Of a stretch of 64,000 bases of DNA, positions 868 through 42,600 are shown piece after piece (positions within the stretch are counted from its first letter, which is position 1; each line of letters begins with the position of its first letter). The stretch spans positions 148,016-212,015 of the forward strand of contig JAUYMS010000030.1 in assembly GCA_030698625.1 (NCBI GenBank). Reading direction: 5' to 3'. The position numbers and the translations under genes were made by a program. This DNA is from Candidatus Omnitrophota bacterium (GTDB lineage Bacteria; Omnitrophota; Omnitrophia; Omnitrophales; Aquincolibacteriaceae). Below the pieces are notes generated by a model that saw nothing but the letters and a program-made list of their open reading frames with translations, was not told the origin of the DNA and did no database searches.

Positions 868-1029
868 ATGCTAAACGAATACAGCAAGAAACAGAAGGCG
901 TGGAAGGGAAAGCTCGAAGGGGTCTCCAAGCAGTTCGGGGTTAACGAGACCTTGATGGACAAGCTTTGCTTCTATTACATCATGCGTTCGATTTCAGAGC
1001 AGATTCGCGGGGAGAACCATGCTGCCTGA
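868..1029 (+). CDS. small hypothetical protein (53 aa), possibly translationally coupled to the giant gene
   Basis: ATG preceded by a GGGGGAAAG Shine-Dalgarno-like sequence. The stop overlaps the giant-ORF ATG (1019) by 11 nt in another frame. Shorter than the ORF-track cutoff; no recognisable domain. Confidence 0.3.
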   Translation: MLNEYSKKQKAWKGKLEGVSKQFGVNETLMDKLCFYYIMRSISEQIRGENHAA

Positions 1030-10000: not shown

Positions 10001-13000
10001 GATGACGGCCGCTATTCGATCGGTGTCTGGTACTTCAAGAATAAAAAAGATTATCCGGACCACTACTTCAAGTTCGGCGGCGAATTTGTCTCACGTGTCA
10101 CCACCGCGAAGAACGCGGCCTATTTCTTCGACGGCCGCTCTTGGAACGGCGATCTCGGCAACGTGATCAAGATTCAAGATGCCGACGGGACGCTTGAACT
10201 CAATTGGAACGAGAAGACGGCGACCCGCACCGACAATGACGGGAATGTGACAAAGTTCACGGATATCAGCGTCATGCAGACCCAAGGCTCGGAGTGTGCG
10301 TCCGGCAGCGGAGATCAATTGACGTTTTGCCCGACATGGATCGCCGACTACATGATTCAGCCCGGGTATCAGGGAATCGGCAGTTACAGCACCCGTGTCG
10401 AGAAGGACGGAATTACTAAGACGGGAACTTTTCAGCTGATCGGCCGCAAAATGGATTCCGCTTATCCGAAGACCATCGTGGTCAACGGTAAGACCGTGAT
10501 TGTCGATATGGAAGCGCTCGTGGAAGCCTTAAAGGCCGCTAAGAACAAAGCGCGCTTTGATAGCGGCGTCCTTTGCTTCGAAGGCTGCGGTGATGCTCAG
10601 GACCTCTTCCTGCTTCAAGGTGTTAAAGACGTCTTTGCGATTGAAGAATTGAACCGCTTTGAGCATAATCCGCGCCCCAGATTCCTGATCGTGGGGCCGA
10701 CCTATTCACGGCAGGGCTGGATCGATTTTGCGACCGAACTGCTGCGCCGCTATGATGAAAAGGGTCTTGATATCTTTAATGCAATTAACCGGTTGATGAT
10801 TACCGACGTGTGGCCGCCGCGGCCGTTTCATTCACAAGTCAATAACGATAAGGTCATGGACATTGTGCTCAGAGGCATTGAACAGGCCGATCCGCGTGTG
10901 GCGCGTATGCGTAAAGTAATTCTCTCAGATCTTGCCAAGTCTTACGGTCTGAAGAAAGTGGAACAGTGGTACGCGGAGGGCCTTGTGCGGATCAAGGTGG
11001 ACATGAAGTCGATGACGGCACACGTTGCCTTCGACAAGACTCTGCAGGAGCAGAGGATTTCCGGGCCGCTTGTCGATCCGCTCGGCGAGTTCATTGTGCC
11101 GGCCGCGATGGAGTTCAATTTTAAGGAAGTGCCGGATTCACGCATCAACTGGTTCACCGTTGCGGACCCGGTGCCTGCCGTTCTGGAACTTGGCGGTATC
11201 GCATTAGACGTCAAGAAAGTCACCGGTACGGCGCTTATGGCCGAGAAGAGTCTAACGATTCAGCCGGCGATGCGGCTGATGCTGACGGGCGCCGCCATTG
11301 TCTATCAGAAGAGTGCTCTTCAGTTGAACTCATTCAGACAGGAATTCAAGGTTGGGCGTATCGAGGTCAGTTACGATACAAACACTTGGAATAACAACTT
11401 GCCGTCTCTGGTCAACATGTACGACGAGTCCGGGAACCGCGTCAAGGTAATCAATATGAACGGCTTTCAGGGAAGCTATGAATGCGCCTTCGGCGAAGAG
11501 TGCGCCTTTGCCCAGGTCGATATCTGGCCGCCGAGCGCGTCTACGCCTCGTCCGTTGATCTATTACCCCGGGAACGATGACATCACGCACCGCTTTGTTC
11601 AATTCAGGCATGGCGATTTTGACAAAGGAATTGAGTCAACCCTGGAGTATCAGGGTAAAGACAGCGTTACGCTCGCGGTGATCAATACCTTTCAGTACAG
11701 AGACGACGGGTCGCTTGAAACGATCACGCGCACCGGCCCGGATGGGGAACTCTCCAAAATTGAATTAGATACCACGACAGGTGATGTCGCTGCAAGGCCC
11801 GCTCCGGGCTCGCGGGTGGCGTTGATCACGCGTGCCGACGGCAGACAAAGGAACATCTTCTTTAAAAACTGGGAAGAGCTGATTGACCGCACCCGCCAGT
11901 TTGAGTCCGAAATGGAAGATCCCCGGGCGGCTCAAGTGAGGAAGCTTGTCATAGCGGGTCTTGACTCTTACGGGATGACCCGAGAAGAGATTGAGCAGTG
12001 GCTGGAAGCGGGCCTTCTTAAGATCGAGGTTGATTTAAAGAAGAATCAGGCGCGGGCCGTCTTTAGTGAAAAGCTGCAAGGCCGCAGGTTTGAAAATGCC
12101 AAGGTGCATCCTTTGGGCGCGTTTATCGTACCGGCCGCAATTCAGTTTACGTTCAAAGAGGAGGAGCCCTTTTTTCTCTCGATCGCGCCGGTGGTAAGTC
12201 GCGATGGCGAAAAAGAAGCCGTAGATGTTGAGTATCCGTTAGATCCGGGCTTGATTAAGCCTCTGTTGCCGTTCCGGAAACAATTGATATTGGCTTCGGC
12301 AGATATTCAGTACGAGGCAGGCGGCGTTTATGGGCGCATGAGTGTCGATTATTCTGACACCGGCCGCCTTGCGAGTGTGAAGATTTACAGCGCGGGCGAG
12401 CTTGTCAAAGAAGTCAAGTATCAGTGGTTCGAACCTTGTAACCGTTGGGGGATGTGTCTAGAGTCGATCTGGAACGATTCCGCCACAGTGTACTACCCGC
12501 AATCCACGGACATTACGCGTAGGAGAGTTGACTGGAATAGCGGCGGCTTGATGACACTCATGATTCCCTCGGGCGCGATTACAGGTGTTCAGGAATTCGG
12601 TTTGGATGAATCCGGCAAGGAAGTCCGGCTCTTCACCAACGAGTATAAGTATGGAGGTAACAATGTTCTCTATGAGGAAGACGTAGACTACGAACCCATC
12701 GGCAGTGTAGAAGACTACGAGTTGACGAAAGTGGTCACACCGTATCTGTCTAAGATCGTCCGCAGAGATGCAAAGAACAACGTCATTTCCACGATCGATA
12801 TGCGGCCGTTTTTAGAGAAACCCGAGTTCGATATGAATCAGGACGGAGTCGTCGATCAGGCCGACGCGCAATTCATGCGCCTTGCCTTAGAGATGGCGGA
12901 GGGAAAGGCAACGGGCGATCTGAATTTCGACGGCGTTGTGGATGCGAAGGACCTGAGGCTTTTTTACATCGGCCGTTATGCGGTGATCCGCCTTGCCGAC

Positions 13001-16000
13001 GGCTGGCAGAAGGGCGTTTTCTACAAGGATTACGAAGACCTTTTAGATCAAGCCCGCAAGTTTGAAGCGAGCAATGATGAGGCCTTGAAGTCCCGCCTCG
13101 CAAAGTATGTGACCGGCAACATGGCGACTGAGATGGGTCTTACTGATGAAGCCCTTGCCGAATTGATTGAATCCATAGAAGTCGATCTCAAGAATCTTAC
13201 CGTCAGCGTTCGCTTCAAAGACGGCAAAATGGGCCGCGACCGCCTGATCGCCCCGATGAATAACGGCGATCTGCCGGAGACGGTCGTTTATCAATTGTTT
13301 CAAAACGGGCAGTCCTGGGGTTTTAAAGAAGCTGTTTGGGAGTGGCCGGTCACGTACCGGCGCACCTACTGGTGGACTTATGAGGATAGAAATGTCGCGA
13401 AGGTCCTGTATGAAAACGACACGGTCTCAAAAATCGAATGGCGAATACGATCGAAAGTGACATCCGCGGGGATGCCTTGCTTCGGTGAAGAATGCCCGGC
13501 TCCTGTGGTGAAAACCTACGATAATCTGTACCAGGTCGACTCCTATACTCACCACGACGCGCAGATCGAAATCACTCAAGAATATACCGGAACGAAGCAT
13601 CCCGACGCAGAGGTTGTGGCAATCGAATTCATAGGGAGCGAGAGATTTAAACCCGCTTACCGTAAGGATGTTCTAACGCTCCGGAAGCTCCGCGACGGGC
13701 AGTATCACATCGAGAGGGTCACGGAATACGACACGGAGGGCCAGGTTATTGCGACAACAACCTTCGAGTATGCCACCCTGGGTGCGGCTTCGACGTTGAG
13801 CCGCGTGATTCGCTGGGACGCTGCCGAACGTCTGCACACTTCTTCGGCCGTAATAACCGGAGGCAACACCGCGCGTATTACGGTCGGGGGTCAGCATTTC
13901 TATGTGACGGTCACCTTTGACAGCTATGAGACTTTGCTCAATCACATGAAAGCCCTGGAAGTGCACCCGAACGCGGTTCTCACGGAAGCCGTGAAGAAGG
14001 CCGCGTTGGTACAGCTCTCTGACAAAATGGCTCTATCAATGGCCCACCTCGAAGCCATGATCGAAGAGATCGAAGTTACCCAAGGCTACGAAGTCATCGT
14101 GAGGTTTAAAGAAGGGAATATGGGCGATGATCGCAAGTTTCGCATGCTCGAGGATGCAAGCCTTCCTGCCGCCGCAAGAGTCAGCTTCGGACAGGAAATC
14201 AGAATCGGCGACGATGGCGAAGTGCTTGGTCTCGCCGCCCACACCGTAAGGATGGAATGGGACCTGTTGAATGGCCACAATCTCAGAGGCTCCATGTCGA
14301 TCGATCCGCAGGGACGCATCACCCATATAGGTTGGAACCAGACGGCTCCGGTGACGGATTGGTGTAAGGGCCCCATTTGCCCTGCGTATATGCCGGGTCC
14401 GGTCACTGTTGCCTACTTTATCGAAACCTATCTCTATGGGGACGACGGTATCAAGATCGTTCGCCGGGATTTCGAAGTCGGACCCAACGGCGAAATTTCG
14501 AAGAGGATCGCGGCGGAGGATACCTATGACACCATCATCCTCGGCGATGTCACGTCGGTCATTGAATTGAAAAGGATGGGCGACAAGCGGTTTCACGTCT
14601 CGTCGGTCACCGATTACGACGGAAAAGGAAATCTTGTCGCTGTGACCCGTTTCTCCTACTTGACCGCAACGACGCTCATCGCCTGCATCCCCGGTGAAGA
14701 ATGCAATACGGTTTCTACGGTTTCTGTAGGCCTTGCTTTCCTGAGGCGCAAGAATGCGGCCGGGGAATTGTTGTCGGAAATCCGCTTTAATTTTACCGCG
14801 GGTTCAAAAGTCGCGACGATCAAGCGCGCCGACGGTGAAGAGCTAAGGGTTGACTACGACAGCTTTCGCGGGCTTCTCGATGCCGCGGCAGTATTTGAGA
14901 ATCAAGTGAACGAACAGATTGCCCTCGCCAAAGAGCTCGCCGAGGCGCTAAAGCGCGCCATGTCGGACAACGGCAATTGGGATGTCAATCAGGACGGCGT
15001 GGTGGACTATAATGATGTCAGCTATGTCTGGACCGGCTACGAAACGGTCCTTCGGGTGCTTGATCAGCTTCCTGAGCCTATCCTGACGGCGCTCGATTTC
15101 GATCAGGACGGCAAAGTGACCAAAAAAGACCATGCCGAAGTACGCCGCAGGATTCTGGAAAGCATCTGGAGAGAGCATGACATCCGTGAGGCCAAGGTGC
15201 TGCTCGAGCGGATGCTTCAGTTTGATTTCGGCATGATGCGTCAGACGGTGCTCGACCTCATGGCCGAAGGCAAGATCAAGTTTGAAGTCGATGTGAAGAA
15301 TATGCGGGCGAGTATCTGGATTGACCCGGGCGTCAGGCGCGACGGCATTCTCATTGACGGCGCGAACCTGACCAATTTGCTCGGCAGCCGGGCGCTGCCT
15401 CAGACAATCAACGTAAAACTCGGGCGCGATACCGAGCTAGTTGCTTTAATAGCTATTTGCGGAGTAGACGTATCCGGCGAGAAAATCTGTGGAGCCCCTG
15501 ATAGGGCGCCGGCAAAACTGCATCTTCGCTCAGCAGAATTCGAAGCGGCCGATAATCGTTTTGGCCGCAACAAGAACCTCTTCATTAAGCTTGATTATCG
15601 GAAGACCTACCGGGAAAAGGCCGATGACCGGTTCGTGCTGTTTTTGGACGGCGATAATCTACTGAAGGGTGTCGAGATCTACGAGGGGAACCCGAATATC
15701 GTCTGCATCACGACCCCTTGCCCGACCGGTAAGCTGATTCAGGGCATTTCCTATGCCTATGAAAATAATATCGCGGTCAGCGCCACGATCGACTACCTCC
15801 ACGCGGGCGTGAATCAGCCGACCCATCGTGAGGTAACATTCAAGGCGCTCGGCCAGTCGCAGGGCGGTTCCGACCACTGGGCGCGTCGCGGTAACTATAT
15901 TGATACCGTAGCCGATTATATTGACGGTCAGCTCATCGTGAAATCGAAGTTCGATTACTTGCAGACGGCGGTGTTGTGCCCGGCGTCCGTTGCGCCTGAC

Positions 16001-19000
16001 GGCGGTGGCGTGGGTCTTCCGCTCGGCCCCTGCACGGGCGGGGATGTCGCGTTAGCGTCCATTACCCGCACCGGCGAGAACGGTGAATTCCTGTCGGCGA
16101 TCGCCGGAATCAAGAGCGCCGAAGGATTCGGCTTTGACTGGGCGGCAACGGTTGAGATTCATGAAGGCAGAAGTGCCCAGCTCGGATTCAACGTTTACGA
16201 AGAGCTGTTTGATAAGGTGCGGCAGTTTGAAACTATCAACGAGCGTGAGATTGCCCGCCTCGTCGAGATCCTCAAAGAAGGCATTCTGAAGAATACATTC
16301 TCCATGCATGAACAGGACATCGAAAAGGCGATCAAAGACGGTCTGATAACCTTTGTAGTCGATCCGAAAACGAATACGGCGAAGATCCATCTTGACCCGA
16401 AAGTACGCACGAAGCAGTGGGCGGCCGCTCTGTTTGATCCCTTAAAGGCCATGCGCCATGACTGGGACGGCGAACTGCCGGCGGTTGTGGAAGTGAAGTT
16501 CGGCAATGGCCCGCTTATTCTGGCCGGCTGCGCCTGGGGTTTTATCTGTGACATTCCTCAGCCGAAGCATATCGTGGAAGCGACGTTTATCGTCGGCGCC
16601 AAGGATGAGAACGGTCTTTTCGTCGAGCATTTACCGACGGGTTATCTCGTGAAATACATGCCCGAAGTTGAAGATGGGGAAATACGTATCATCGGCGTAT
16701 CCGGGGACAACCGGCCGCACTCGGTTGAGGTCTATCAAGCGACGCCGTATAGGGAATGTGCCCAATTCAATCCGTTTGGCTGCGGCGCACTTTTGCAGAC
16801 GATCGCCTATACCTATGGGGAAGACGGAAGAACGGCGACAGCCCTGATTGAGACTCTCATGGAGGATGGCACGGTTAGCCGCCGTGATGAAGTTACTCTC
16901 ACCAGGCTTGGCGACGGCCTCTGGTATGTGGATACCGTCAATAATAGCAAGTTCGTCTATCTGATCAGTATGGTTGTCTATGACTGCATCGAGGGTGTCG
17001 AGTGCATTCCTCCGCCGCCGATGGTGCACCTGGCCTTCATTCAGGGCAAGGACCGCCACGGAAACGATCTCTACAGCATTAACGATATCAAAACTTCCGA
17101 TACTGCCGGCTATCGCTACGAAGCAACGGTTTATACACAGGGCGAAAGAATTAAGACCGTTGTTAAATATAATAATTATCAGGAACTATTTGATGCGGCG
17201 CTGGCTCTCACGCATGTGGTCTCAGTCCATGCCCTTGATTTTACCGAGCCCCTGGAAGTACGCCTCCTTGATGACGGCAGCTATGAATCGATCTATAAGG
17301 GAGCTACTTATCAGAGCGATGCCGACGGCAAGGTCGAAATTCCCGGCACCCTCGAGGACTTAATGTTCCATTTCAACGATGACGGAACTCTCGAGAGTAT
17401 GACCTTCACGAACGGCAATAACACCATGACGGTCACCTTTGAAGAAGACGGCGCCGGGAACCTTCGCGTCAAGACCGAAACCGCCGAAGGCGGCTTCGGC
17501 TGGACCAAGACTTTTGACTACGCTGAAAAGTCTGTGACATGGGAATTTAGTTTTGGGATTCAAAAGGAACTTTTCTATGACTTGCCACAGGCGAATTTAA
17601 GGAATAACGGCAGCGGCCTGAGCTATGAGGGAAATGTATTCGTCGAGCTCATGTCAGGGATGGCGCCGTCAGTAGGGCGGCCCTACTTTTGGCACAAGAC
17701 TCTGGATGGCAAATACTACCGCTTTATCCAGATCGGCGATGCCTTTGACCTGAATGACGTGGATTGGCTCCAGGTCCAAGAAAGAAACACCGATGCCCTG
17801 CGCGCGCTGTTGCGCGACGACATTATGCTCCTGGGTCACGATCAGCTCGAGACCGCAGAAGAAGACGACCTGGTCTTTACGGCCGACCTCAGATTAGGGG
17901 TCAACGGTTTTCCGGTTAAGGTGAAATTTCCCGACGGCACCGAAAAGACCATGCAGGCCGAAGTATCAGCCGACCGCAAGATAGTCTTGACGGTCGCGAT
18001 GCCTGATGGCACGAAGCGCACCTATGTAAGCGAAATTACAGCTGAAGGCAAAATCCTTCCGCTGCGATTGAAGCCCTCCTTTGAAGTTGTCCACGAGATG
18101 GAGTTTGGTGCAGGGCGTGTGATTTTGGAAGAGGGAACGGACAGTGCCGGTAATGCGCAGTTGGAAGCGCTGGTGCAGGCGCGGGACGGAGACGGTTGGA
18201 AGACCTTAAAGAAGTTTCGGATCAAAAAGGACACTGTCAAAAGAGGACACTCGCAAGTGACGCGGCAGCCATGCAGCGACTCTAAGCCATGTGACACCGG
18301 CGGCCATCCGACGCTTTCCATGGAAACCCTCGACGGCGAGCAACTCCTTTTTATCGACAATTCTGTCAGCGGACCCGGCTATACGATCGCTCATGACGGC
18401 ACGCCAGATCAACCCGTTTCAGTTACAGAAAGCTATGCCCTGCGTCGCAGTCTCCGGGAAGGTGGGGAGGGCGAGTGGCAGATCATTCCGACCTACAAAT
18501 ATAGAACATGGGCTCTGGTGCAAACCGAAGTGACCACCTATGACGACTACGGTCAACGCTCGAGTGTTGCGACAGAGAGACGCGGACCACACGGGACCGT
18601 GATCGTAGTGACCGAGGAATTCTACCCCATACCGCCGTGGAGTGACATGGCACAGCGGCCTACAACATACTTCCTGGAAATATACGGTACGGCCGGCGTG
18701 ATCTTGGGAAAAACGGAAATCGGCCAGGAGTTTAGGAGCGAAGCAGATGCCGGGCTCCTGACCGAAGTCCTGGGGATTGACCCCGAAGGACAAGCCGTCC
18801 GAGTTGAGATCAAAGACGATGAGGTTATTCTATTTATCACCAACAGCAAGGGCCAGCCAGTGCTGATCAACCGCACGGGCTTTGGCGTCTTTACGATGAA
18901 CTATGGAACCGATATGGCTGAAGTGCGCATCAAGCACGAGGACGGCACGATTGAGATTCGCCGTTACAAGTGCGTGCCGGGCTGGAATCCGGGCCGCGAA

Positions 19001-20209
19001 CCGATCTGGGTTCCGATCGAGATCGAACCGATTGAACTGCCCGATCTGCCGACCCCTGATCCCCGCAAGCCGGTGCCCGGGTTCGAAGAATGGGTCTTAG
19101 GTCTTCACGTTGAAACGGAATTTATCTACCCCGACGGCACGAGCGAGATCGTCACGGTTGTGCAACCTAAGGTTGAGCCTGTAGTCGTCGAAGGCGCTGA
19201 TTTCGAAGCGGCAGCGTTGACGACGATGAAGGGTTTTGACGGCATCGACACGAGCGGTCTTAATACGCGCGGCGAGGGTCACGGCCCCGGTTTCATTACG
19301 ATGCGTAAAGGTCATGAACAGGGCGCTTATGGTTTCAATTACTTTGTCGGCACATCAAAAGGGGCCCAGGTCAAGGCGCAGGCGATGACGAGCGGTGAGC
19401 CTATGACGCTCGGCTCCCAGACGGTCATCGCGATGAAGGGGAACCGCCGCGACCGCGGTGCGATCAATGCAAGAGTCCGGCTTTATGATGCCTCCGGCAA
19501 CGAGGTAGTCTTCCTTTTTAAGCTTAGGGAGATCATGCAAAACTTCATCATGAATCTGAATCAGTCAAACTTCGATGCCTCACGGGTCATCGGGATGAGT
19601 ATTGAAATCGATCAGGAAACGACCAACCTCACAAAGGGCAGCGTGGACTTTTACCTCGGGCAGGTTGATACCGAGGTCCCGCTTGAAGTCGGTAAGAGTA
19701 CCGCCTCCGACAGCGTGAACCGTCTTATTGCTCAGCACCAGGCCCGCGTCCTCGCCGGCAGTAAGTACATGACACTGTTCGAGCCTGAGGAACGCGAGGG
19801 CGTGAAGGGTTATGCGGCACGCTATGATATTCGCCACGGTCGTAATGATGAGGCCGCTCTGGTTGTCGCCGCTGAAGAAGACGAGCCGATAATGTTCGGC
19901 GGCGATACGCTGGATTTCTGGATGCAGGCCGCAGAGACTGAGAAAGACACCGTGGCCTTCGAAAACCTGAAACTCGAGCTCACGATCATGGCCGACGACG
20001 GACAGATGGTGACCACTGAAATTTATGTGACCAAGCAGGCACAACTCTATCAGATCGACCTCTCCAAACTGGACCCCAACTTTAAGGCCAAGAAGATTAA
20101 AGACATCGTCATCAAGGCCAGCCGTAAGGCCGAAAACGCCGTACAGCGCGCGCAATTCAGCTTTTGGCTCAAGGCCCTGGCCGACAAACTGCACGTCCCT
20201 ACCGCCTAA
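1019..20209 (+). CDS. giant secreted multidomain protein (6,396 aa). It has an N-terminal signal peptide, an acidic region, at least 6 repeated alpha-helical modules, YD/Rhs-like beta-repeat stretches, recurring Cys-pair loops (CFGEECP, CIPGEECN, CAFGEECA, CIEGVECI) and two dockerin-type Ca-binding repeat modules.
   Basis: Single uninterrupted 19.2-kb ORF. Signal peptide MLPETANKFIASLIIVTMTLTQAVPYGFA. Dockerin-like DMNQDGVVDQAD...DLNFDGVVDAKD (about nt 12830-12960) and DVNQDGVVDYND...DFDQDGKVTKKD (about nt 14980-15140). YD-like motifs (TEYDTEGQVIATTTFEY, SVTDYDGKGNLVAVTRFSY). Repeated modules ...YEELFDKVRQFE...IEVDLK...RFKDGKMG... Antisense and off-frame ORFs inside it are judged spurious. 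Confidence 0.85.
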   Translation: MLPETANKFIASLIIVTMTLTQAVPYGFASDLTLSKTGEYIQETDATAPGTQVESEDLPREYEEFFDDSFSPLSASESEENVETVEVTEEVKEELEKQDLDKIEPVVLELPSGPIDWDLAEDHKLLKEARERYGDRVVSGTGHYPDRNALDYPTTYKFYDKDGNLIATYVGGGLGGADVWTEEPKPLDEALKEYYEKLSAFDDFASGIALKGITLDEIKKLRNIQDRLKEVLEAIIALGEAPGENLLKGFQDRVVMLDDILSSRPLLIKMGDKTLEVNISEAMRAIHEQYRRLGLVTTDDFYRLPGIDAADLAGHETFAQYLDSRQVGITTVISVFKGLSSYGNLTLIHGLFVKYIEQYGNIMMGDDRDADGYPEVNYTVFARLVNGTEIARREALATVHRMIAERGIKVPSGGTESFEELLELVKSIDKLDEDLKKVLGDYIDSLDLEEVFKRDVQNEINNVIRNTYDNFIRNFRDMFKDHNTPPGGLLREHDIRFPSGNTLSLDDIVDFISKSENLHQVMLAANADFKEGLGDSNTGLTNTIRRLLDSKISTIMHDLMSHVTNTINARQTFIDDIVTDHEWSHPLHIEGALTFEDFSNYTVELLSLQQSMKDRLAASEERVNAASSQFLNTVRNALTYKISGFMTRTKNEIKMTIRTRDTELNTIIAEHNINFSSAQPVTFEWLLNRVNGVDDLGRELSEKLQAFKGKMGEITNDDGLVNLILTEMRYQVDGATIWENNSRIVFPGLYKTIREGLERVITNVNVEFDIEGLGKVVITAGDLNALTNGLPSDIASLMRFPGIMEKLTEEQLHELEKRDREVLRRNCCFDGRNAQADAGNLSIFGRRIQLTGLFLQAAGAEVVNADGYVDRDAYRRALLMNDRLEALYNAAQLVIEGSVMRVDELVRDISKGISLETYERLYQLIKDTNGAVTDIIKLALDGVIHSARSMVLDMLQDDFNVLLRKIDGILAEAPIQIRIGDKVYVVDSRKVRDAMHQLLNMLTVRNDNNYSKEQYARLTGVTQELLQTLQTDYELNASRQIRIDWREPTYSRDMNQTISLNEFLYRMIPVILKSFGEVILGEDGEVSYVNIEDQLLEGANAPVEKGQDLQTVFGDLVAKRFKDAKEKLHSFDFSKWEDRIAAEKLIYGLVYGLEKEIAYLLQVLNASEIGVLNAELNKYNYYSWNRRGERFNDTVFGRPSFYALWEYFVYRMLVAPRTALLPDGRVLKIDVQSIRSIPGFPYQRSFDEELFPGIVDGDFDGAEKLQYLHSGPFQLMKDADRSLEDFLQAQTERDKFIINLVLRHYAHLDEIPEIYKGRLFVANEDGTVSLNTEIFRRLIKGIDLLHQQILKQVKEWTAEALESLQALKKVPMTVASIKELYAAVMAHRTKIMEYLNGLTRKHEKEDVMEMEEDVTAIYKAMVDEMIHYMRDNDLVTQAGGREVVIPYGQLTQLLMKALEEKFPGEDISAHHFASFYGISIEDLRPANKLEEFLGMQIIALPRNSQYVEIISKLSEIGVMEVLEKAMAAYGEMALRSDGTLDPEKLVELLLDGNLAVKRANERADEIARKVREGLAAIEKPLTNQSFAEMATLIDNMKIEFINVMNDMVSGFEREMFDAVQSHVSSLYQETIKLRIDMLTQNPIQITGHDGSQFTLDLRGIESEVVGRIMALLLQLPEEKKIFDLISSPIYRSETEPRVFTSKVSFANTTMMVEPAMALEEKAVIDTGYLIRLPIYRPWQPWYPLPGNVDPKDTLTQFGFYQLLVRLAEKFGSFATDENGDFSLGNFLAELEKTDLDRFNRRIKMLEDEVTAELASRVPEDANDPVSLGAVIGMQDYLDKSRERFLKALGTMLNDDQNKSNAISSANAAWTRVMNKYEALILERKVTMQIHGRTVTFDGKVLHEILVEEYNQHPDFIDSYKEGGETNSAYSNYRTLYRDYDNKRYYDNDSNSFRDDAEDLEKKNLRYPFDLGELKRIPAISHKDLVGLDVNSKNQVKLSFLADAKELLKGRLNMRVFAPGAAIQTVGVATSSMKSSSVMAMAEMSVRYEDVSYDKVLLGNYIEIDERRVKYVPRRYLDVSKRDAIFRMLPAMIMDHWRSLVVNGVVDADKFRELLRDPEGMKQREKQLVLDSLKSQIEAFRKALVSGDPDMPAIGLTGIVERDGNGYSLVVYEPRLYKYLLEHTDADTGRLKADAVTDELLALTSLTKDQLIERPINEWRVKLPHVSYRLPQDKIYPIYYEEDVMLSSLKAESDSSILRFPSPRWYDLVGKTINIMKANVSFQVNDKGVVEGVIHEAVGVTPLKHAEQAKELLLNSSQARLAKQLRDAYIEQFVTGDNPDLPKGLKAAIAAYLKVGIEDIVSIAAEARDFIRCLGGNCPTWSKTLSVWAVVDGVKKHFAGVATGGWWGFILEPIREPVYRTLDDAVDEMIADERRVDFMPERAPSVFLIETDPLIDGRALEAIADAAKVAVEQITAVDFKRHENRIVCKGPGCDVWSGDLRVTVKQGDNPEKHFEGEIVKIFEPSKLNGYRQYRVTLEEYVPVHEHLSRIDLSAWWGDIHYIDNKQAVIYGQYGRNDENKNGHFAAIVDPRTGEILRYLKDRAGWLTGAVSENKRYAAFFENDNFNINVLIYDLHTGTSTSYRIENYYTWGAGTKKDGYLDFLVSDSGKIHVLHRGQMPDRNTYGPHEVRVYGSDGKIESRVAFEGDANDAYLKLVMRGNWIYAIGNRKANASSSHPGDLILIQRIKVKGNDLEMGEASRVNAGIEAWELDIAEGSRWITVYDFNKPRFTFVYFGKDPSEDKLADIPPVNTAGGSQQARNYSAYDPKGILLVFTRFYYMNEKERDRLSVYDTKTGTSKSYDFRTIMQYLGIGGPDDGFVKNFGFSLNLKTRRFVFSAGVSAPDFYRHRAGENYLYEGSLDDLYALLEIFDEGRRYLELPDGSKQWFNEDGRLIKKIDKDGNVFEVDWKTRTATMTSVYDGSVTTWKNVIADKGYEDDGRYSIGVWYFKNKKDYPDHYFKFGGEFVSRVTTAKNAAYFFDGRSWNGDLGNVIKIQDADGTLELNWNEKTATRTDNDGNVTKFTDISVMQTQGSECASGSGDQLTFCPTWIADYMIQPGYQGIGSYSTRVEKDGITKTGTFQLIGRKMDSAYPKTIVVNGKTVIVDMEALVEALKAAKNKARFDSGVLCFEGCGDAQDLFLLQGVKDVFAIEELNRFEHNPRPRFLIVGPTYSRQGWIDFATELLRRYDEKGLDIFNAINRLMITDVWPPRPFHSQVNNDKVMDIVLRGIEQADPRVARMRKVILSDLAKSYGLKKVEQWYAEGLVRIKVDMKSMTAHVAFDKTLQEQRISGPLVDPLGEFIVPAAMEFNFKEVPDSRINWFTVADPVPAVLELGGIALDVKKVTGTALMAEKSLTIQPAMRLMLTGAAIVYQKSALQLNSFRQEFKVGRIEVSYDTNTWNNNLPSLVNMYDESGNRVKVINMNGFQGSYECAFGEECAFAQVDIWPPSASTPRPLIYYPGNDDITHRFVQFRHGDFDKGIESTLEYQGKDSVTLAVINTFQYRDDGSLETITRTGPDGELSKIELDTTTGDVAARPAPGSRVALITRADGRQRNIFFKNWEELIDRTRQFESEMEDPRAAQVRKLVIAGLDSYGMTREEIEQWLEAGLLKIEVDLKKNQARAVFSEKLQGRRFENAKVHPLGAFIVPAAIQFTFKEEEPFFLSIAPVVSRDGEKEAVDVEYPLDPGLIKPLLPFRKQLILASADIQYEAGGVYGRMSVDYSDTGRLASVKIYSAGELVKEVKYQWFEPCNRWGMCLESIWNDSATVYYPQSTDITRRRVDWNSGGLMTLMIPSGAITGVQEFGLDESGKEVRLFTNEYKYGGNNVLYEEDVDYEPIGSVEDYELTKVVTPYLSKIVRRDAKNNVISTIDMRPFLEKPEFDMNQDGVVDQADAQFMRLALEMAEGKATGDLNFDGVVDAKDLRLFYIGRYAVIRLADGWQKGVFYKDYEDLLDQARKFEASNDEALKSRLAKYVTGNMATEMGLTDEALAELIESIEVDLKNLTVSVRFKDGKMGRDRLIAPMNNGDLPETVVYQLFQNGQSWGFKEAVWEWPVTYRRTYWWTYEDRNVAKVLYENDTVSKIEWRIRSKVTSAGMPCFGEECPAPVVKTYDNLYQVDSYTHHDAQIEITQEYTGTKHPDAEVVAIEFIGSERFKPAYRKDVLTLRKLRDGQYHIERVTEYDTEGQVIATTTFEYATLGAASTLSRVIRWDAAERLHTSSAVITGGNTARITVGGQHFYVTVTFDSYETLLNHMKALEVHPNAVLTEAVKKAALVQLSDKMALSMAHLEAMIEEIEVTQGYEVIVRFKEGNMGDDRKFRMLEDASLPAAARVSFGQEIRIGDDGEVLGLAAHTVRMEWDLLNGHNLRGSMSIDPQGRITHIGWNQTAPVTDWCKGPICPAYMPGPVTVAYFIETYLYGDDGIKIVRRDFEVGPNGEISKRIAAEDTYDTIILGDVTSVIELKRMGDKRFHVSSVTDYDGKGNLVAVTRFSYLTATTLIACIPGEECNTVSTVSVGLAFLRRKNAAGELLSEIRFNFTAGSKVATIKRADGEELRVDYDSFRGLLDAAAVFENQVNEQIALAKELAEALKRAMSDNGNWDVNQDGVVDYNDVSYVWTGYETVLRVLDQLPEPILTALDFDQDGKVTKKDHAEVRRRILESIWREHDIREAKVLLERMLQFDFGMMRQTVLDLMAEGKIKFEVDVKNMRASIWIDPGVRRDGILIDGANLTNLLGSRALPQTINVKLGRDTELVALIAICGVDVSGEKICGAPDRAPAKLHLRSAEFEAADNRFGRNKNLFIKLDYRKTYREKADDRFVLFLDGDNLLKGVEIYEGNPNIVCITTPCPTGKLIQGISYAYENNIAVSATIDYLHAGVNQPTHREVTFKALGQSQGGSDHWARRGNYIDTVADYIDGQLIVKSKFDYLQTAVLCPASVAPDGGGVGLPLGPCTGGDVALASITRTGENGEFLSAIAGIKSAEGFGFDWAATVEIHEGRSAQLGFNVYEELFDKVRQFETINEREIARLVEILKEGILKNTFSMHEQDIEKAIKDGLITFVVDPKTNTAKIHLDPKVRTKQWAAALFDPLKAMRHDWDGELPAVVEVKFGNGPLILAGCAWGFICDIPQPKHIVEATFIVGAKDENGLFVEHLPTGYLVKYMPEVEDGEIRIIGVSGDNRPHSVEVYQATPYRECAQFNPFGCGALLQTIAYTYGEDGRTATALIETLMEDGTVSRRDEVTLTRLGDGLWYVDTVNNSKFVYLISMVVYDCIEGVECIPPPPMVHLAFIQGKDRHGNDLYSINDIKTSDTAGYRYEATVYTQGERIKTVVKYNNYQELFDAALALTHVVSVHALDFTEPLEVRLLDDGSYESIYKGATYQSDADGKVEIPGTLEDLMFHFNDDGTLESMTFTNGNNTMTVTFEEDGAGNLRVKTETAEGGFGWTKTFDYAEKSVTWEFSFGIQKELFYDLPQANLRNNGSGLSYEGNVFVELMSGMAPSVGRPYFWHKTLDGKYYRFIQIGDAFDLNDVDWLQVQERNTDALRALLRDDIMLLGHDQLETAEEDDLVFTADLRLGVNGFPVKVKFPDGTEKTMQAEVSADRKIVLTVAMPDGTKRTYVSEITAEGKILPLRLKPSFEVVHEMEFGAGRVILEEGTDSAGNAQLEALVQARDGDGWKTLKKFRIKKDTVKRGHSQVTRQPCSDSKPCDTGGHPTLSMETLDGEQLLFIDNSVSGPGYTIAHDGTPDQPVSVTESYALRRSLREGGEGEWQIIPTYKYRTWALVQTEVTTYDDYGQRSSVATERRGPHGTVIVVTEEFYPIPPWSDMAQRPTTYFLEIYGTAGVILGKTEIGQEFRSEADAGLLTEVLGIDPEGQAVRVEIKDDEVILFITNSKGQPVLINRTGFGVFTMNYGTDMAEVRIKHEDGTIEIRRYKCVPGWNPGREPIWVPIEIEPIELPDLPTPDPRKPVPGFEEWVLGLHVETEFIYPDGTSEIVTVVQPKVEPVVVEGADFEAAALTTMKGFDGIDTSGLNTRGEGHGPGFITMRKGHEQGAYGFNYFVGTSKGAQVKAQAMTSGEPMTLGSQTVIAMKGNRRDRGAINARVRLYDASGNEVVFLFKLREIMQNFIMNLNQSNFDASRVIGMSIEIDQETTNLTKGSVDFYLGQVDTEVPLEVGKSTASDSVNRLIAQHQARVLAGSKYMTLFEPEEREGVKGYAARYDIRHGRNDEAALVVAAEEDEPIMFGGDTLDFWMQAAETEKDTVAFENLKLELTIMADDGQMVTTEIYVTKQAQLYQIDLSKLDPNFKAKKIKDIVIKASRKAENAVQRAQFSFWLKALADKLHVPTA

Positions 20210-36275: not shown

Positions 36276-36315
36276 AGAACCGTAAAAACAGACCGGACGC
36301 CGTCCCGTGAACCGC

Positions 36316-36446
36316 ATACCGGTATGCGCGCTCATTTCACGGCAACGCGGGACGCGGTTCTTAAAGTGCTGGACCCGGCCCGGCTGCGGTGGCTTTCCTT
36401 CAGCCATTTTGAGGTCGACGAGTGCGGGGCCTTGAACGACTGGCTC
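36316..36446 (+). repeat. left copy of a 131-bp direct repeat (97% identical to 39262-39392) carrying a fragment of an MBL-fold gene (…[44 protein letters not shown]…)
   Basis: Alignment by eye: 4 mismatches in 131 bp. Preceded by a truncated REP-like unit AGACCGGACGCCGTCC at 36290-36306. Confidence 0.8.
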
Positions 36447-36651
36447 CGGATCCTTCATCAGTTCGGCGACGGGGCCCGGGCTCTGAATCAAGACGAGGTT
36501 TGATTGAGTTTATCGCTATATAATACCGCGCTTCGTTAAATAAAACATCACAAAAGATGTATTATTGTCTGTTATTGTATTGAAATAAAGCATCAAATAA
36601 GATATATTATCTATAGATAATGCCGTTAATACATCAATTAAGAGGTGTAAA

Positions 36652-36999
36652 ATGGAATTCGAAACACTGACAGAGAAAGCAACCCTAAGCGAACTGGGAC
36701 AAAGAATAGCTTGCCACCGTCTCAACAAAAATATGACTCAGAGTGCACTTGCTATCGAGGCTGGGGTCTCCAAGCCGACAATTCAGCGCGTTGAAAGTGG
36801 CGCCTCCACTCAAACTTCAAACTTAATCCGCATTTTACGCGCGCTCAAATTACTCGGCAATGTGGATGCTTTAGTCCCGAAGCCGCCTATCAGCCCTGTT
36901 CAGCAGTTAAAGTTGCAGGGAAAGCTCAGACAACGCGCATCCTCAAAAAAGGAAAAGAAAAGAACTGATGGTAGTTGGTCATGGGGTGAGGAGACGTGA
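36652..36999 (+). CDS. hipB: XRE-family HTH transcriptional regulator, HipB-like antitoxin
   Basis: HTH motif LNKNMTQSALAIEAGVSKPTIQRVESG. The stop overlaps the GTG start of the downstream HipA-like gene by 4 nt (GTGA). A low-GC promoter region lies at 36500-36650. Confidence 0.75.
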   Translation: MEFETLTEKATLSELGQRIACHRLNKNMTQSALAIEAGVSKPTIQRVESGASTQTSNLIRILRALKLLGNVDALVPKPPISPVQQLKLQGKLRQRASSKKEKKRTDGSWSWGEET

Positions 37000-38297: not shown

Positions 38298-38401
38298 TTA
38301 GTAAGCATAACCGTAGAAAGTTACCGGGTACCAAAGGGACACGTAATAAATATAGGTGCCAGGCAAAGGCGTAACGTTGGAGCGAAATTGTAGGAGAGGG
38401 A

Positions 38402-39109
38402 ATGGACCTTGATCTCTTGTTATCAGAATTGAAAAAGAATAAAGACCCCGGCACAGGGCTGGGGATAGCAAGCCAAGCAGTCAATGGTATAAATGAACTT
38501 GTCGTGGATGCTGGGCGTGGCAAATTTCCTTGGTCGCGGATACCTGGGAAGGGAACCAAGGGGGAACTTTGGTATAGGAACAGGCTATATTGGCTAAAGA
38601 CTATACCACTTGACGGTGACGGTTGTTTTATTGCGCTTCATTCAGAATCGCCAGTTTATCAAAAAAATAAAAAGGGACGGTGGCCTGCGGATTTGTTTGG
38701 CCTATTTCACGAGCGCCAGACGACGATGCTCTGCGTTATTGAACTGAAGGCCGGAACGGCAGGTGATAATGTGCTTTATGCTATCGTTGAAGGAGCCCGC
38801 AATCTTCATCTGCTTCGACAAGCCCACCCGGCTTTAGTGAAAAGCTGGGTGGCTGCAGGCAAAGCCGATCGGAACGCATGGGGAAAGGGCAATCCCTTAG
38901 CCGAAGTTTCCAAGAAAAGAACGAAATTAATTATATTGGGTGACTGGGCGTGGATCAAAGCGCAGGGAAAATGGAAAGGTGCCGCAAAAACCTTGCGTGG
39001 CTTGCTGGCAAATAGCCTAAAACAAGATTTATCCATTCACTGTTTGAATAAAAATGCTAAGCCAGCGAGTAAGCCGCATGCGCTTTTGCCTGTCTGGCGA
39101 CGGCTGTAA
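38402..39109 (+). CDS. hypothetical protein (235 aa), possible PD-(D/E)xK nuclease-like fold; third gene of the HipBA-like module
   Basis: AGGAGAGGG RBS. Candidate motifs are a PLDGDG...CFIAL beta-strand and MLCVIELKAG (ExK). No confident family match from sequence alone. Confidence 0.5.
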   Translation: MDLDLLLSELKKNKDPGTGLGIASQAVNGINELVVDAGRGKFPWSRIPGKGTKGELWYRNRLYWLKTIPLDGDGCFIALHSESPVYQKNKKGRWPADLFGLFHERQTTMLCVIELKAGTAGDNVLYAIVEGARNLHLLRQAHPALVKSWVAAGKADRNAWGKGNPLAEVSKKRTKLIILGDWAWIKAQGKWKGAAKTLRGLLANSLKQDLSIHCLNKNAKPASKPHALLPVWRRL

Positions 39110-39145
39110 ATTCTGACAACGGTTTTTAACAGAAGGAGAATCAAA

Positions 39146-39581
39146 ATGGCCTCAATTTCTGAGATGGCCCCTGACATTTACCGCATCAGTACCTTCGTGC
39201 CTGAATGGAATCTTCAATTCAATCAATTCTTGGTCAACGATGAAGAGCCCCCTGCTGTTTCATACCGGTATGCGCGCTCATATCACGGCAACGCGGGACG
39301 CGGTTCGTAAAGTGCTGGACCCGGCCCGGCTGCGGTGGCTTTCCTTCAGCCATTTTGAGGTGGACGAGTGCGGGGCCTTGAACGAGTGGCTCAGGTTGGC
39401 GCCGGAGGCCACGGCGGCGTGCAGTGTGGTGGGGGCACGCGTCAATCTAGCTGATTTTTCCGAACGGCCGGCGCGTGAATTAAATGACGGAGAAGTCTGT
39501 GGATGCAGTACAGGTTCTGCCGGGGACGGGCATCACTTTCTTCTCGCTCCGCCCGATTTTCTTCAAAAAGAATGTCATTGA
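39146..39581 (+). pseudogene. MBL-fold (flavodiiron/ODP-like metallo-beta-lactamase fold) gene remnant, frameshifted and 3'-truncated
   Basis: 39146-39308 encodes [38 protein letters not shown] (strong AGAAGGAGAA RBS). A -1 frameshift near 39255 continues as [16 protein letters not shown]...[11 protein letters not shown] (HxExDH-like MBL motif). The combined length of about 145 aa is far too short for this fold. Confidence 0.65.
39262..39392 (+). repeat. right copy of the 131-bp direct repeat (see 36316-36446)
   Basis: 97% identical to the left copy; lies inside the MBL-fold pseudogene. Confidence 0.8.
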
Positions 39582-39686
39582 TTCATGTGCCTGGCGGGTC
39601 TATATTAAAACCCTATAAAAGATATGTTTAAAGTTATTGTTAGTTGTTAGTTTCTGACCAAAATCCAGCCTCAAAAGGAACCCCCT

Positions 39687-42600
39687 ATGCTTTCCCTCTC
39701 GGCCGTCAAATCAAAATTTTTTGTCAGCGTCATCACGTTCTCCTTTTTTCAATTAATCTTATCGCCCAGCTCTGTTTTGGGGCAGCCTCCCGCGATGCCC
39801 CCGGCAGCTGTCTTTTCTGCCGGTCAGCCGGAGGTTCCTGTTGATGAACCGCCGCAGCAGGAAAAGAAGAAGCCCAAGGGCGCGGAGGAGGCCCCTGCAG
39901 ATTTTTTTTCGCCGCAGACATTATCTTCACCCGATAACCCGCCATTCGGTGACGGCTTCGATATTCAGGAGTTGATCGATCTGAGTCTCTGTTATTTTGT
40001 TCCCGCCAACGGCCTTGTCGAAAGCACGTCGGGTTATCCGTTTGAAGGATTTCGTCAAACGGATTTCACGCAGCCGACGGCCATCGGTTTTTACGCGCAG
40101 TTGTTGTCCAATGTAATTTCCGGTGATTTGCAAACAGAGCACATGTCTAAAGCCGATGCGATTGCGGGTTTGGACCGATTGACGGATTCGCTGCTCGTGG
40201 ATCAGGAAAACTTGGGGTATAAGGGACTGCTGCCCTGGATGGGTTATGACGGCACGAATTGGAATCGAAAGAACGATCTCTTTGGCCAACAGGTCGTTTT
40301 GGGAGATAACGCGAATTTGTCGGTGGCTTTGGGTGCAACTGCCGGCGCTCTTTCCGACGAAAGCCTGGCCGGCGATGCGACGGTCCAGGGTATCAAGGAC
40401 AAAATAGATGCCTTCCTGGAAGGGCAGAGGGAAGGGTATGAGTATCTGTTTAACCCCGCGGCCGGAAGGTTCCGGCGGGGATGGAACTTCACGAACAATA
40501 GTTGGGTGGGCGGAGACAATGGTACCGCGCATTTTTTTGGAGATGAGTTTCGCCAGGCCATTCTGTTCTTGTCGATGCGCTATGATTTTCCGGAAACTGT
40601 CTATACGAGTTTGGAGACTTCGACAACGGAGTATACCTTGTCGACCGGTGAGGTGATTTCGACGGTAATGCCTTTTGACGGCGGGGCGTTTCAAATGCTT
40701 TGGCCGACACTGACGATGCCGGAAACGAATGACCCGCGCCTCAAAACGATGTTGCGCAATTTTGTGACGATAGCGCTAGACCATGCCAAGGAAAATAACC
40801 TACCCGGTTTTCTCTCCGCAAGTTACGGCGGTATCGATGAGTATGTCTCGAATGCGGGCATTACGGAGCTTTCCTTTAACCCCGCGCCCCGCAACGAAAC
40901 GATAGCCTCCCTTTATACCTTGGGTGCGGCCTACATGATTGCCCCGAATGAGATTGAGGTTTTTCTCGAACAGATTTTCCAAGCCCATCCGGATCTCATC
41001 ACCAATCATGGGTTGTGGGAGGGTGTCAACGTCGCGGCGGGAGAGGTCATTCAGGAGCAGATTGTGGCCAATGTCTCAACCTTTGTCCTCGGTCTGATCG
41101 GTAAGGGCCCCGAACATATGACGCGCTATCTTCAGGAGAAGGGGTTGGCTTGGAAACTTGAGGCGGCCTACCGCCCCGAAGAGCTCATTGATATTATCGC
41201 TGACAGCAACAACGCCTTTTCCTGGGGAGGGGGCTTTATTACGGCAGGGCGCTCGGATGACGAATACCATATTACGGCCAACCGCTTCAACTTCGTAGGC
41301 ACGGCCTTTTTGCATGACGGTATCAATATTGCGGGCAAGACCCTGCGGATCAAGTACTGGTCGGACACGGCTGTCGGCTCTACCAAGATCGAATTCAAGG
41401 AGCGGCGTGGGGGCCAACTCGACACTCGCCTCGTGCTTGACGAGGTACGGTTTGCGGATACAAACGGGGAGGAGCGGGTCATAGAGGTCGAACTGCCCGC
41501 CTCGGTAGGACTTTTCGATATTGATGAGACCGTGATTACGATCAACTCCTTATTCGGAGCAGGTTTGAGTATAGGCTTCACGGATTTTGACATTGTCCCG
41601 ACGGATTTTAAGGACCTCGTCTCAGACGGTACGGGAGCTTTTTCATGGGGCAGCCAGATTACGGGTTATCCGGCGGGCGACGAGTATGTGATTCAAAGCC
41701 CCGCTTTTACGACGAGCGGCACGGCGTTCCTGCAGGGTGGCATTGATGTCTCTGGCGGGCAACTCAAGCTCCGGTATCGCTCGACAACGGATGTCGGCAA
41801 TATGAAACTGCAATTCAAAGAACGCACGGAAAGCGGTCTCGAGGTAAGGCTCGACCTCATCAACTATGTGCTTGAGAATACGGGCGGTGCCGAGAGGGAA
41901 ATATTGATCGATCTGCCTGTGTCTGAATTTCTCGAACACATCGACGAGATCGTGATGTTGTTAACGGGGGGGGCGGGAAATCCCCTGGATCTGGTCATTA
42001 CGGATATCGACATGCGGCAATACGAGGTTATGGATGCCCTGGCTCAGAGTCAGAATATTTTTATCTGGGGCGATCAAGGTGTTTCAGGCTTTCTCACGAA
42101 TGAAGGCTATACCATTCAGAGCGCCGTTTTTCATTCCGCGGGCGCGGCTTTCATTCAACCCGATTTCGGTATCAATGTCGCGGGCAAAGACTTGAAGATT
42201 CGCTACAAGTCCACCACGGCTGTAGGGAAGGTAAAGTTCGAGCTTAAGGAACGTTCTTCGCAAGGGCTTGAGATCATGCATGTTACCGAGGAAGTGCTGT
42301 TTGTGAACACGGGCGGCGAGGTGCGCGAAGTAACCGTCAACCTGCCGTTGCTTCTGGATCTTTTCAACCTGCACGAGTTAGTCATGTTGATTACCGAAGG
42401 GGCCGGAACGCCCTTGGACATGACTATCACGGGAATCGAATTCTCAGACCGCAATGAAAGTGATCTGATCAGTGAAAGCACGGGTAGTTTTTCCTGGTCG
42501 AACACGAACCCCATTACGGGCTTTGCCCAAGGCGACGAGTACCACCTTTCGAGCCCCTGGTTTTACTCGAGTGGGACGGCTCTGCTTGAAGACAGCGTCG

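Follow-up and report, generated by a model that had tools for sequence, protein, structure and literature searches.

Does an open reading frame (ORF) that directly follows a hipBA toxin-antitoxin cassette belong to the cassette as a third component, or is it only a neighbour that came along with it? The question is raised by a 235-residue ORF, hereafter ORF235, in a window comprising the whole 64,000-nucleotide (nt) stretch that was analysed (positions 148,016 to 212,015 of contig JAUYMS010000030.1, assembly GCA_030698625.1, Candidatus Omnitrophota bacterium). A preliminary description, made from the letters of the DNA, had taken ORF235 for a partner of HipBA and possibly a PD-(D/E)xK nuclease, perhaps forming a tripartite toxin-antitoxin or defence module. 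The evidence laid out here argues, with a probability of roughly 70%, that ORF235 is an orphaned member of a predicted PD-(D/E)xK nuclease family and a neighbour of hipBA, not its third component.

ORF235 appears in the ORF list of the window as a plus-strand gene of 235 codons with an ATG start. This ATG is the first start codon of a stop-to-stop frame that opens at 38375, so there is no earlier start. Searched exhaustively with HMMER, a set of 1.84 billion cluster representatives (one per 50%-identity cluster; family members are labelled P0001-P0041) yielded 25 proteins at E ≤ 1e-3, most of them matching over the full length at 36-48% identity. Fifteen of the 25 reach E ≤ 1e-30, the best of them 1.5e-46 over the full length, and because these stand for independent clusters, ORF235 is, judged from its sequence relatives, a genuine protein-coding gene far beyond chance. 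Twenty other representatives match ORF235 at E 1.5e-46 to 1e-10, and all invariant columns of the family are kept in the window protein. Since the matches from so exhaustive a search are few but strong, ORF235 is real and its family very rare and unnamed; no member carries an informative name. Searches of Pfam, NCBIfam, PADLOC, PHROG and PDB sequences with ORF235 gave no match, and neither the family profile against PDB sequences nor Pfam scans member by member yielded anything useful. A word-indexed homologue search found only ORF235 itself, annotated as a hypothetical protein. No relatives were detected in a single-protein metagenome scan with ORF235, in an IMG/VR scan with an alignment of the P0021-type subgroup, or by tblastn of plasmid and phage collections. 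The family is thus new, rare and unnamed, and its fold, discussed below, is a known one.

Genomic context was taken for every family lineage with contigs, and the loci were scanned with hidden Markov models (HMMs) of the family and of its partner; counts are given by lineage, as some loci are near-duplicates. In each of the 12 other lineages with downstream sequence (P0002, P0003, P0005, P0006, P0009, P0013, P0015, P0016, P0021-like, P0029, P0032 and P0041), a gene for a beta-CASP metallo-beta-lactamase (MBL) of about 430-460 amino acids (aa) is found downstream of the family gene. The two genes overlap by 4 nt or are separated by 0-8 nt in L002, L003, L005, L007, L013 and L099-L101. They are convergent and 33 nt apart in L006, and in L010, L011 and L016 the beta-CASP gene lies one or two genes further downstream. 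Even decaying loci retain the arrangement: in L017 (8001-10092) both genes are frameshifted directly after a WYL regulator, and in L001 (8001-9098) both are truncated amid IS1595, IS66 and IS4-type transposases, with a fragment of the partner remaining. Because of this strict synteny and the frequent translational coupling, we infer that the family is functionally coupled to the beta-CASP protein. The partners contain Lactamase_B_2 and RMMBL domains with an HxHxDH motif, align end to end with RNase J models and are of the RNase J / aCPSF1 / Cas14 type, their nearest solved relatives being EF2904 (2az4), aCPSF and RNase J. The beta-CASP family comprises at least 5,543 clusters (90% identity) at E ≤ 1e-20 and is far larger than the ORF235 family. 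Many of its members come from Omnitrophota and bear no annotation beyond 'MBL fold metallo-hydrolase' or 'ribonuclease J'.

A corresponding link to HipA was found nowhere else. None of the gene calls at the other family loci (12 other lineages) includes HipA. Among 80 sampled loci that encode relatives of HipA at 32-67% identity and were taken with 4 kb flanks, the family HMM detected no member within 4 kb of HipA (0/80), and the partner HMM detected no beta-CASP partner in the same loci. The proposed partnership with HipBA is thus unsupported; the preliminary description had itself named homologues that never stand beside HipA as grounds for abandoning it, and this is the pattern seen in the sample. 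The cassette is also complete by itself. The stop of hipB and the start of hipA overlap by 4 nt, the Couple_hipA domain spans residues 5-115 of the hipA product, and the motifs NQDDHVKN and SPAFDV are readable in its sequence. A helix-turn-helix (HTH) gene overlapping a full-length HipA is the make-up of a canonical bipartite HipBA, and since HipA is full length and HipB lies upstream and overlaps it, HipBA appears to be a self-sufficient bipartite module. Comparison with the 23 closest HipA relatives agrees with this: an ORF of 105-165 aa lies directly upstream of hipA, with a 4-nt start overlap in most, so that about 20 relatives share the arrangement of the window, and the downstream genes vary in size and strand between loci. 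As hipB-hipA is kept in relatives while the downstream genes vary, the pair is best described as a self-contained two-gene cassette. Its promoter-like site carries a perfect 14-nt palindrome, TTATCTATAGATAA, at 36607-36620, which overlaps the -10 element and is a probable HipB operator as judged from its sequence and position. A weaker 20-nt inverted repeat (36545-36564 / 36627-36646) flanks the palindrome.

The alternative reading, in which hipB, hipA and orf235 work together as one tripartite unit of toxin-antitoxin or defence type, with the HipA kinase coupled to a nuclease effector, draws on the layout of the window itself. As had been described, ORF235 is present and co-directional with both hip genes. 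It has a strong ribosome-binding site (RBS) of its own: a Shine-Dalgarno sequence, AGGAGAGG, occupies 38392-38399 and ends 2 nt short of the ATG, and its AGGAG core (38392-38396) lies 5 nt from the ATG. ORF235 does follow hipA closely, although the spacer from the hipA stop at 38297 measures 104 nt and not the 105 nt given previously. A consensus scan of the plus strand of this spacer found neither a terminator-like nor a promoter-like site, which makes read-through from hipBA plausible, and ORF235 is probably co-transcribed from the hipBA promoter. Low GC content at third codon positions (GC3) and flanking repeats are common to the three genes, and ORF235 retains all residues that are invariant in its family. 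Against these features stand the absence of HipA near the family in 12 of 12 other lineages and of family members at the 80 HipA-relative loci, the two-gene cassettes with variable downstream genes among the nearest HipA relatives, and the constant beta-CASP partner of the family. Furthermore, the window HipA is full length and carries Couple_hipA, whereas known tricistronic Hip systems split the kinase or use HipS-like antitoxins. With HipA unsplit, HipB overlapping upstream and a different constant partner in the family, a tripartite module is very improbable, and the kinase-plus-nuclease idea is removed for this locus; hipBA is an ordinary bipartite cassette. ORF235 itself looks like co-inserted cargo beside it, a solo copy for which re-wiring to HipBA transcription, with a real coupling of kinase and nuclease, has only a very small probability.

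AlphaFold2 modelling with the family alignment gave a confident model of ORF235 (predicted local distance difference test score, pLDDT, 92.2; predicted template modelling score, pTM, 0.91). A second model, of the distant member P0029 (pLDDT 89.5, pTM 0.88), reproduced the topology, with helices (H) and strands (E) in the order H-E-E-E-H-(H)-E. In both models the alpha-beta-beta-beta-alpha-beta order corresponds to that of the restriction-endonuclease fold, as far as predicted secondary-structure order goes. In alignments of 19-26 members E55, E82, E114, Y126, A127, N134 and W184 are invariant, and D97, L115, K116, E130, R133, W149 and G180 are kept in at least 90% of 26 sequences. This matches the PD-(D/E)xK motif scheme, with D97 before strand 2, E114-x-K116 on strand 3 and E55 on helix 1, and the model places D97 and E114-x-K116 on the two arms of a hairpin. 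The preliminary description had quoted two peptides in support of its nuclease guess, both of which are present (PLDGDGCFIAL, residues 69-79; MLCVIELKAG, residues 109-118), and the guess survives in part. The ELK of the second peptide is the conserved ExK (E114 invariant, K116 in at least 90%) and the topology fits, but family members do not share the Asp residues of PLDGDG, offered as the Asp strand. Conservation is seen instead at D97, which lies in 'PADLFG' at the start of the strand pairing with the ExK strand. One member, P0017, in which D97 is replaced by G (SAGILG) and K116 by R (EVRAG), may have lost its activity or changed its function.

Structural searches, which had been suggested as a check, returned weak matches that are mostly PD-(D/E)xK proteins, but none that is significant. 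For the first model, the best Foldseek match in the PDB had E ~0.1, and BamHI and FokI appeared amid noise such as Argonaute PIWI and hexokinase. For the second model all of the top eight PDB matches were PD-(D/E)xK nucleases (PaqCI, FokI, HamA), again weak, with Dna2 and MspJI lower in the list; best PDB E-values across the models were 0.09-0.15. The best match in BFVD had E 0.017 and probability 0.9, and several entries there are named 'PD-(D/E)XK nuclease', 'restriction endonuclease', DUF2726 or UL24. An hhalign comparison of the family with Hjc of P. furiosus gave an uninformative alignment. Since no match to any PD-(D/E)xK protein in the PDB or BFVD is significant (E ≥ 0.017), the assignment rests on topology, motif geometry and the enrichment of weak matches. 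On this basis the family is likely to have the PD-(D/E)xK fold, and its members are probably Mg2+-dependent nucleases, as far as can be read from the models.

It is conceivable that the family is not a nuclease at all and that the E, D and ExK residues are coincidental or serve another role, for example in a non-catalytic adaptor that binds DNA or RNA, or in a protein that regulates or inhibits the beta-CASP enzyme. The lack of a significant structural or profile match to a solved PD-(D/E)xK protein, the noise sharing the top of the first PDB list and the two substitutions in P0017 would all fit such a view. However, sequences of only ~25-45% identity share five acidic or basic residues with few or no exceptions, these residues occupy the PD-(D/E)xK positions of a confident model, and the weak matches of two models in two libraries converge on restriction-endonuclease-like proteins. 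We therefore consider a non-nuclease role unlikely, and a predicted PD-(D/E)xK nuclease remains our preferred description of the family.

The window differs from the other family lineages sampled in that its family gene is the only orphan among them. No beta-CASP partner was found in the 64 kb window by the partner HMM or by tblastn with six partner sequences, and no beta-CASP remnant was detected at 39001-39800 in a filter-free scan at maximum sensitivity. GC3 is 0.48 for hipB, 0.43 for hipA and 0.46 for orf235, compared with 0.52-0.65 in flanking host genes, and a direct repeat of 135 nt with 96% identity brackets hipB-hipA-orf235. The earlier statement that ORF235 shares the inserted segment is borne out by the low GC3 common to the trio and by this repeat. 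Since GC3 and flanking repeats support co-import, ORF235 was probably imported together with hipBA on one low-GC3 segment of ~3 kb. Both repeat copies lie in fragments of an ODP-type MBL gene. The right remnant begins 36 nt after ORF235; the left fragment is shorter, with its N-terminus missing and an internal deletion, and the two cease to align at the same point, after '(D/G)EV'. Campbell-type integration as the origin of the repeats does not fit all observations, and neither tandem duplication followed by deletion nor simple target duplication explains the layout. The right remnant was considered as the partner of the family and rejected, being of the PF19583 type, frameshifted and truncated, with no match to the partner HMM. 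It should be noted that the label 'MBL' can mislead here, as the ODP remnant beside orf235 resembles the true partner by name only. Coordinates are collected in Table 1.

Table 1 Features of the window (nucleotide positions) and predicted elements of ORF235 (residue positions; AF2, AlphaFold2)
Feature	Position	Strand	Remarks
Left 135-nt repeat copy	36315..36449	.	Internal fragment of ODP-type MBL gene; remnant ORF 36324-36503
Promoter-like site upstream of hipB	36580..36620	+	TTGAAA-17-TATATT; consensus scan
hipB-like HTH antitoxin gene	36652..36999	+	PF01381; weak couple_hipB/HipB matches
hipA, full-length kinase, 433 aa	36996..38297	+	PF13657 Couple_hipA 3.6e-19; PF07804 HipA_C 7e-55
hipA-ORF235 spacer, 104 nt	38298..38401	+	Contains Shine-Dalgarno AGGAGAGG
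ORF235	38402..39109	+	Predicted PD-(D/E)xK-like nuclease core; rare unnamed family; candidate active site E55, E82, D97, E114, K116
ODP-family (PF19583) MBL pseudogene remnant	39146..39581	+	C5-run frameshift 39248-39252; truncated after ~117 codons
Right 135-nt repeat copy	39261..39395	.	96% identical to left copy
N-terminal two-helix hairpin of ORF235	Helices 3-12, 16-30		AF2 model
Conserved linker of ORF235 family	After N-terminal hairpin		RG..P...R.PG.G..GEL.[FY]RN.L.WL[RK]T.PL
Helix 1 of ORF235 core	55-65		Bears E55; AF2 model
Strand 1 of ORF235 core	74-81		E82 at its end; AF2 model
Strand 2 of ORF235 core	98-104		D97 directly before; AF2 model
Strand 3 of ORF235 core	107-116		E114 and K116 at its end; AF2 model
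Helix after strand 3 of ORF235	124-140		Bears Y126, E130, N134; AF2 model
Rest of ORF235	Helix 142-153; strand 170-180; further helices; strand 208-214		AF2 model

With its beta-CASP gene missing from the window, the solo ORF235 could be a stand-alone nuclease or a relic. In the latter case, ORF235 would be functionless and drifting towards a pseudogene, its beta-CASP half having been lost in the rearrangement that left the ODP fragments behind. Such decay would suit the only family member without a partner, particularly in a segment scarred on both sides by duplicated, frameshifted and truncated ODP remnants, and decay is also seen in other members, at the IS-rich L001 and the frameshifted L017. 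The gene itself speaks against this: its reading frame is uninterrupted over the full length, none of the invariant residues is missing, and the RBS is strong. With no partner remnant downstream, there is no obvious sign that the loss is recent; a PD-(D/E)xK enzyme can, moreover, act alone. On balance a functionless relic is a minority possibility that we deem rather unlikely, and an orphaned but intact nuclease gene is the reading we prefer. A defence island in the window was considered and rejected, as the genes around the trio encode TPR and secreted-repeat proteins, a 1,062-aa repeat protein, a transporter of the SSF type, a MerR regulator and a desaturase. The 1,062-aa protein starts at 39687, has no Pfam match and by eye looks internally repetitive. 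Further away, an ORF of 6,396 aa followed by one of 1,224 aa fills the first third of the window (1019-20209).

Three of the lineages with a family gene encode a second predicted nuclease, characterized by a D-x13-17-ELK motif, between the family gene and the beta-CASP gene (L010 5560-6534, L011 8175-9221, L016 2480-3238). Because of this extra gene, L010, L011 and L016 encode three putative nucleases in a row. Like the ORF235 family, the D...ELK proteins immediately precede the beta-CASP gene in L010, L011 and L103, often with a 4-nt overlap; in L016 the D...ELK gene is one small gene away from it. In these NucS/EndoMS-like proteins the motif is followed by an aromatic-rich helix, and one intervening protein has a weak match to NucS (E 0.0036). 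The D...ELK proteins differ from the ORF235 family in being longer (~250-350 aa), in having another N-terminal region and in giving no match to the family HMM, and hhalign aligned the two groups over 38 columns of the D..ELK segment at E 0.036, which leaves homology unproven. A relative occurs in an Omnitrophica WOR_2 genome, where the gene just before the beta-CASP MBL, overlapping it by 4 nt, encodes a 331-aa protein with a 'DLWG-x13-ELK' motif and homology (E 2.5e-17) to the gene that intervenes in L011. Two genes upstream of this protein lies one for a phage large terminase (phrog_38, 7e-97), and DUF2130 is found downstream. In L103-L106 (WOR_2 and related contigs, about 1400-10000) the beta-CASP MBL comes after the 'DLWG..ELK' protein and a second 331-aa protein, which has an N-terminus like that of L002_418 (phrog_5990). 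A ParB-methyltransferase and the phage large terminase lie upstream in these loci, and DUF4062 and DUF2130 lie downstream of the beta-CASP MBL. The layout of L103-L106 resembles that of a prophage, or of an island of phage origin, with the nuclease pair on board. The ORF235 family, rare and short, thus seems to replace or supplement the commoner D..ELK proteins as a partner of this beta-CASP enzyme.

The surroundings of the pair in other lineages give some indication of its role. Five lineages (L002, L006, L010, L013 and L017) encode WYL-domain regulators only a few genes away from the family gene. Two reports describe WYL regulators of this kind as co-localising with defence systems and sensing single-stranded DNA (ssDNA) (PMC9122601, PMC11662680). 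Further neighbours include AbiEii, IetA-like AAA, Cas4-like PDDEXK_1, NERD, HEPN/MNT and DUF2130 proteins and many transposases. Comparison of ORF235, the beta-CASP partners and the intervening genes with PADLOC-DB v2 gave no match; PADLOC matches are limited to neighbours, namely WYL, AbiEii, IetA-like AAA and Cas4-like proteins. IetA-like AAA ATPases (PF00004) recur within a few genes of the pair in L006, L007/L008, L010 and L011, a TPR-TPR-HD_4 gene set lies near the pair in L006 and L007, and DUF2130 recurs in L011, L016 and L103. These recurring genes may belong to a larger conserved island. Neither the ORF235 family nor its beta-CASP pairing is included in PADLOC v2, and the literature searched for a system of beta-CASP, PD-(D/E)xK and WYL components contained nothing specific on the pairing.

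Given the constant beta-CASP operon and the WYL, defence and mobile-element genes nearby, the family most likely represents one half of a two-nuclease module that would serve in defence, DNA-damage processing or mobile-element biology. In such a module E55, E82, D97 and E114-x-K116 would form a metal-binding catalytic site, and the family proteins would be Mg2+-dependent PD-(D/E)xK nucleases or nickases working with the beta-CASP exo/endonuclease. The frequent WYL regulators suggest that the module may be induced by DNA damage or infection. More tentatively, and as a possibility to which we give somewhat less than even odds, the ORF235 family, the D...ELK proteins and the widespread beta-CASP proteins could together make up an undescribed system. 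It would consist of a PD-(D/E)xK sensor or nickase and a beta-CASP processor, often under an ssDNA-sensing WYL regulator, located on defence islands or prophage-like elements and acting in anti-phage immunity or in phage and mobile-element warfare. What makes the family worth attention is that an unannotated group of proteins has a structure predicted with confidence, a clear candidate for its active site and a strict genomic coupling to a beta-CASP family of thousands.

Several points weigh against the interpretation of ORF235 as an orphaned nuclease beside an unrelated hipBA cassette. Most family contexts are short metagenomic contigs, and the partner search covered 64 kb of a 217 kb contig, so the beta-CASP gene could lie elsewhere in the genome. 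Foldseek, HMMER and hhalign gave no statistically significant fold or profile match, and the spatial convergence of E55, E82, D97, E114 and K116 is a prediction from residue order. Lastly, the conserved residues, the strong RBS and the operon-like place after hipA would also be expected of a lineage-specific functional link in this single genome, for which we see an extremely small chance.

Among known systems, the predicted core of ORF235 resembles BamHI, FokI and PaqCI in its order, in the acidic residue before strand 2, in the (D/E)xK on strand 3 and in an extra conserved Glu after strand 1 (E82), and these enzymes recur among the weak Foldseek matches. The spacing in ORF235, E82-15-D97-17-E114-x-K116, resembles that in BamHI, E77-17-D94-17-E111-x-E113. 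In contrast to these enzymes, the ORF235 family has no methyltransferase partner and is paired with a beta-CASP nuclease; its N-terminal helical hairpin and conserved Arg/Gly-rich linker are not seen in them, and there is no significant structural (E ≥ 0.09, TM ≤ 0.3, TM being the template modelling score) or sequence similarity. The tripartite Hip systems are alike in having a Hip-family kinase operon of more than two genes. In HipBST the third gene arose from a split of HipA into HipS and HipT (PMC9325769), and in HipIN-type kinases the downstream gene encodes a HipS-like (+HIRAN) antitoxin (PMC8262856). The window HipA, however, is unsplit and overlaps an upstream HipB, and ORF235, which is not kept alongside HipA in its relatives, showed no similarity to HipS or HIRAN in the Pfam scan. 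The usual partner of the family, of the RNase J / aCPSF1 / Cas14 beta-CASP type, has its nearest solved relative in E. faecalis EF2904 (PDB 2az4) and belongs to another family than the ODP-type remnant of the window. Should the pair serve in defence or counter-defence, it would add a beta-CASP-based effector class outside type VII CRISPR. A parallel to such an arrangement is offered by Hachiman, in which HamB, a helicase, takes the place held here by the beta-CASP MBL, and from which ORF235 also differs in having no PADLOC match. HamA (8vx9, 8vxy) gave the best-superposing of the weak PDB matches (root-mean-square deviation ~5 Å over 117-135 columns; not significant), and one family member has a faint Pfam match to HamA (E 0.22). 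Like the role proposed for the ORF235 family, HamA (DUF1837) is a small PD-(D/E)xK nuclease with an ExK motif that, in a defence operon of two genes, acts together with another enzyme.

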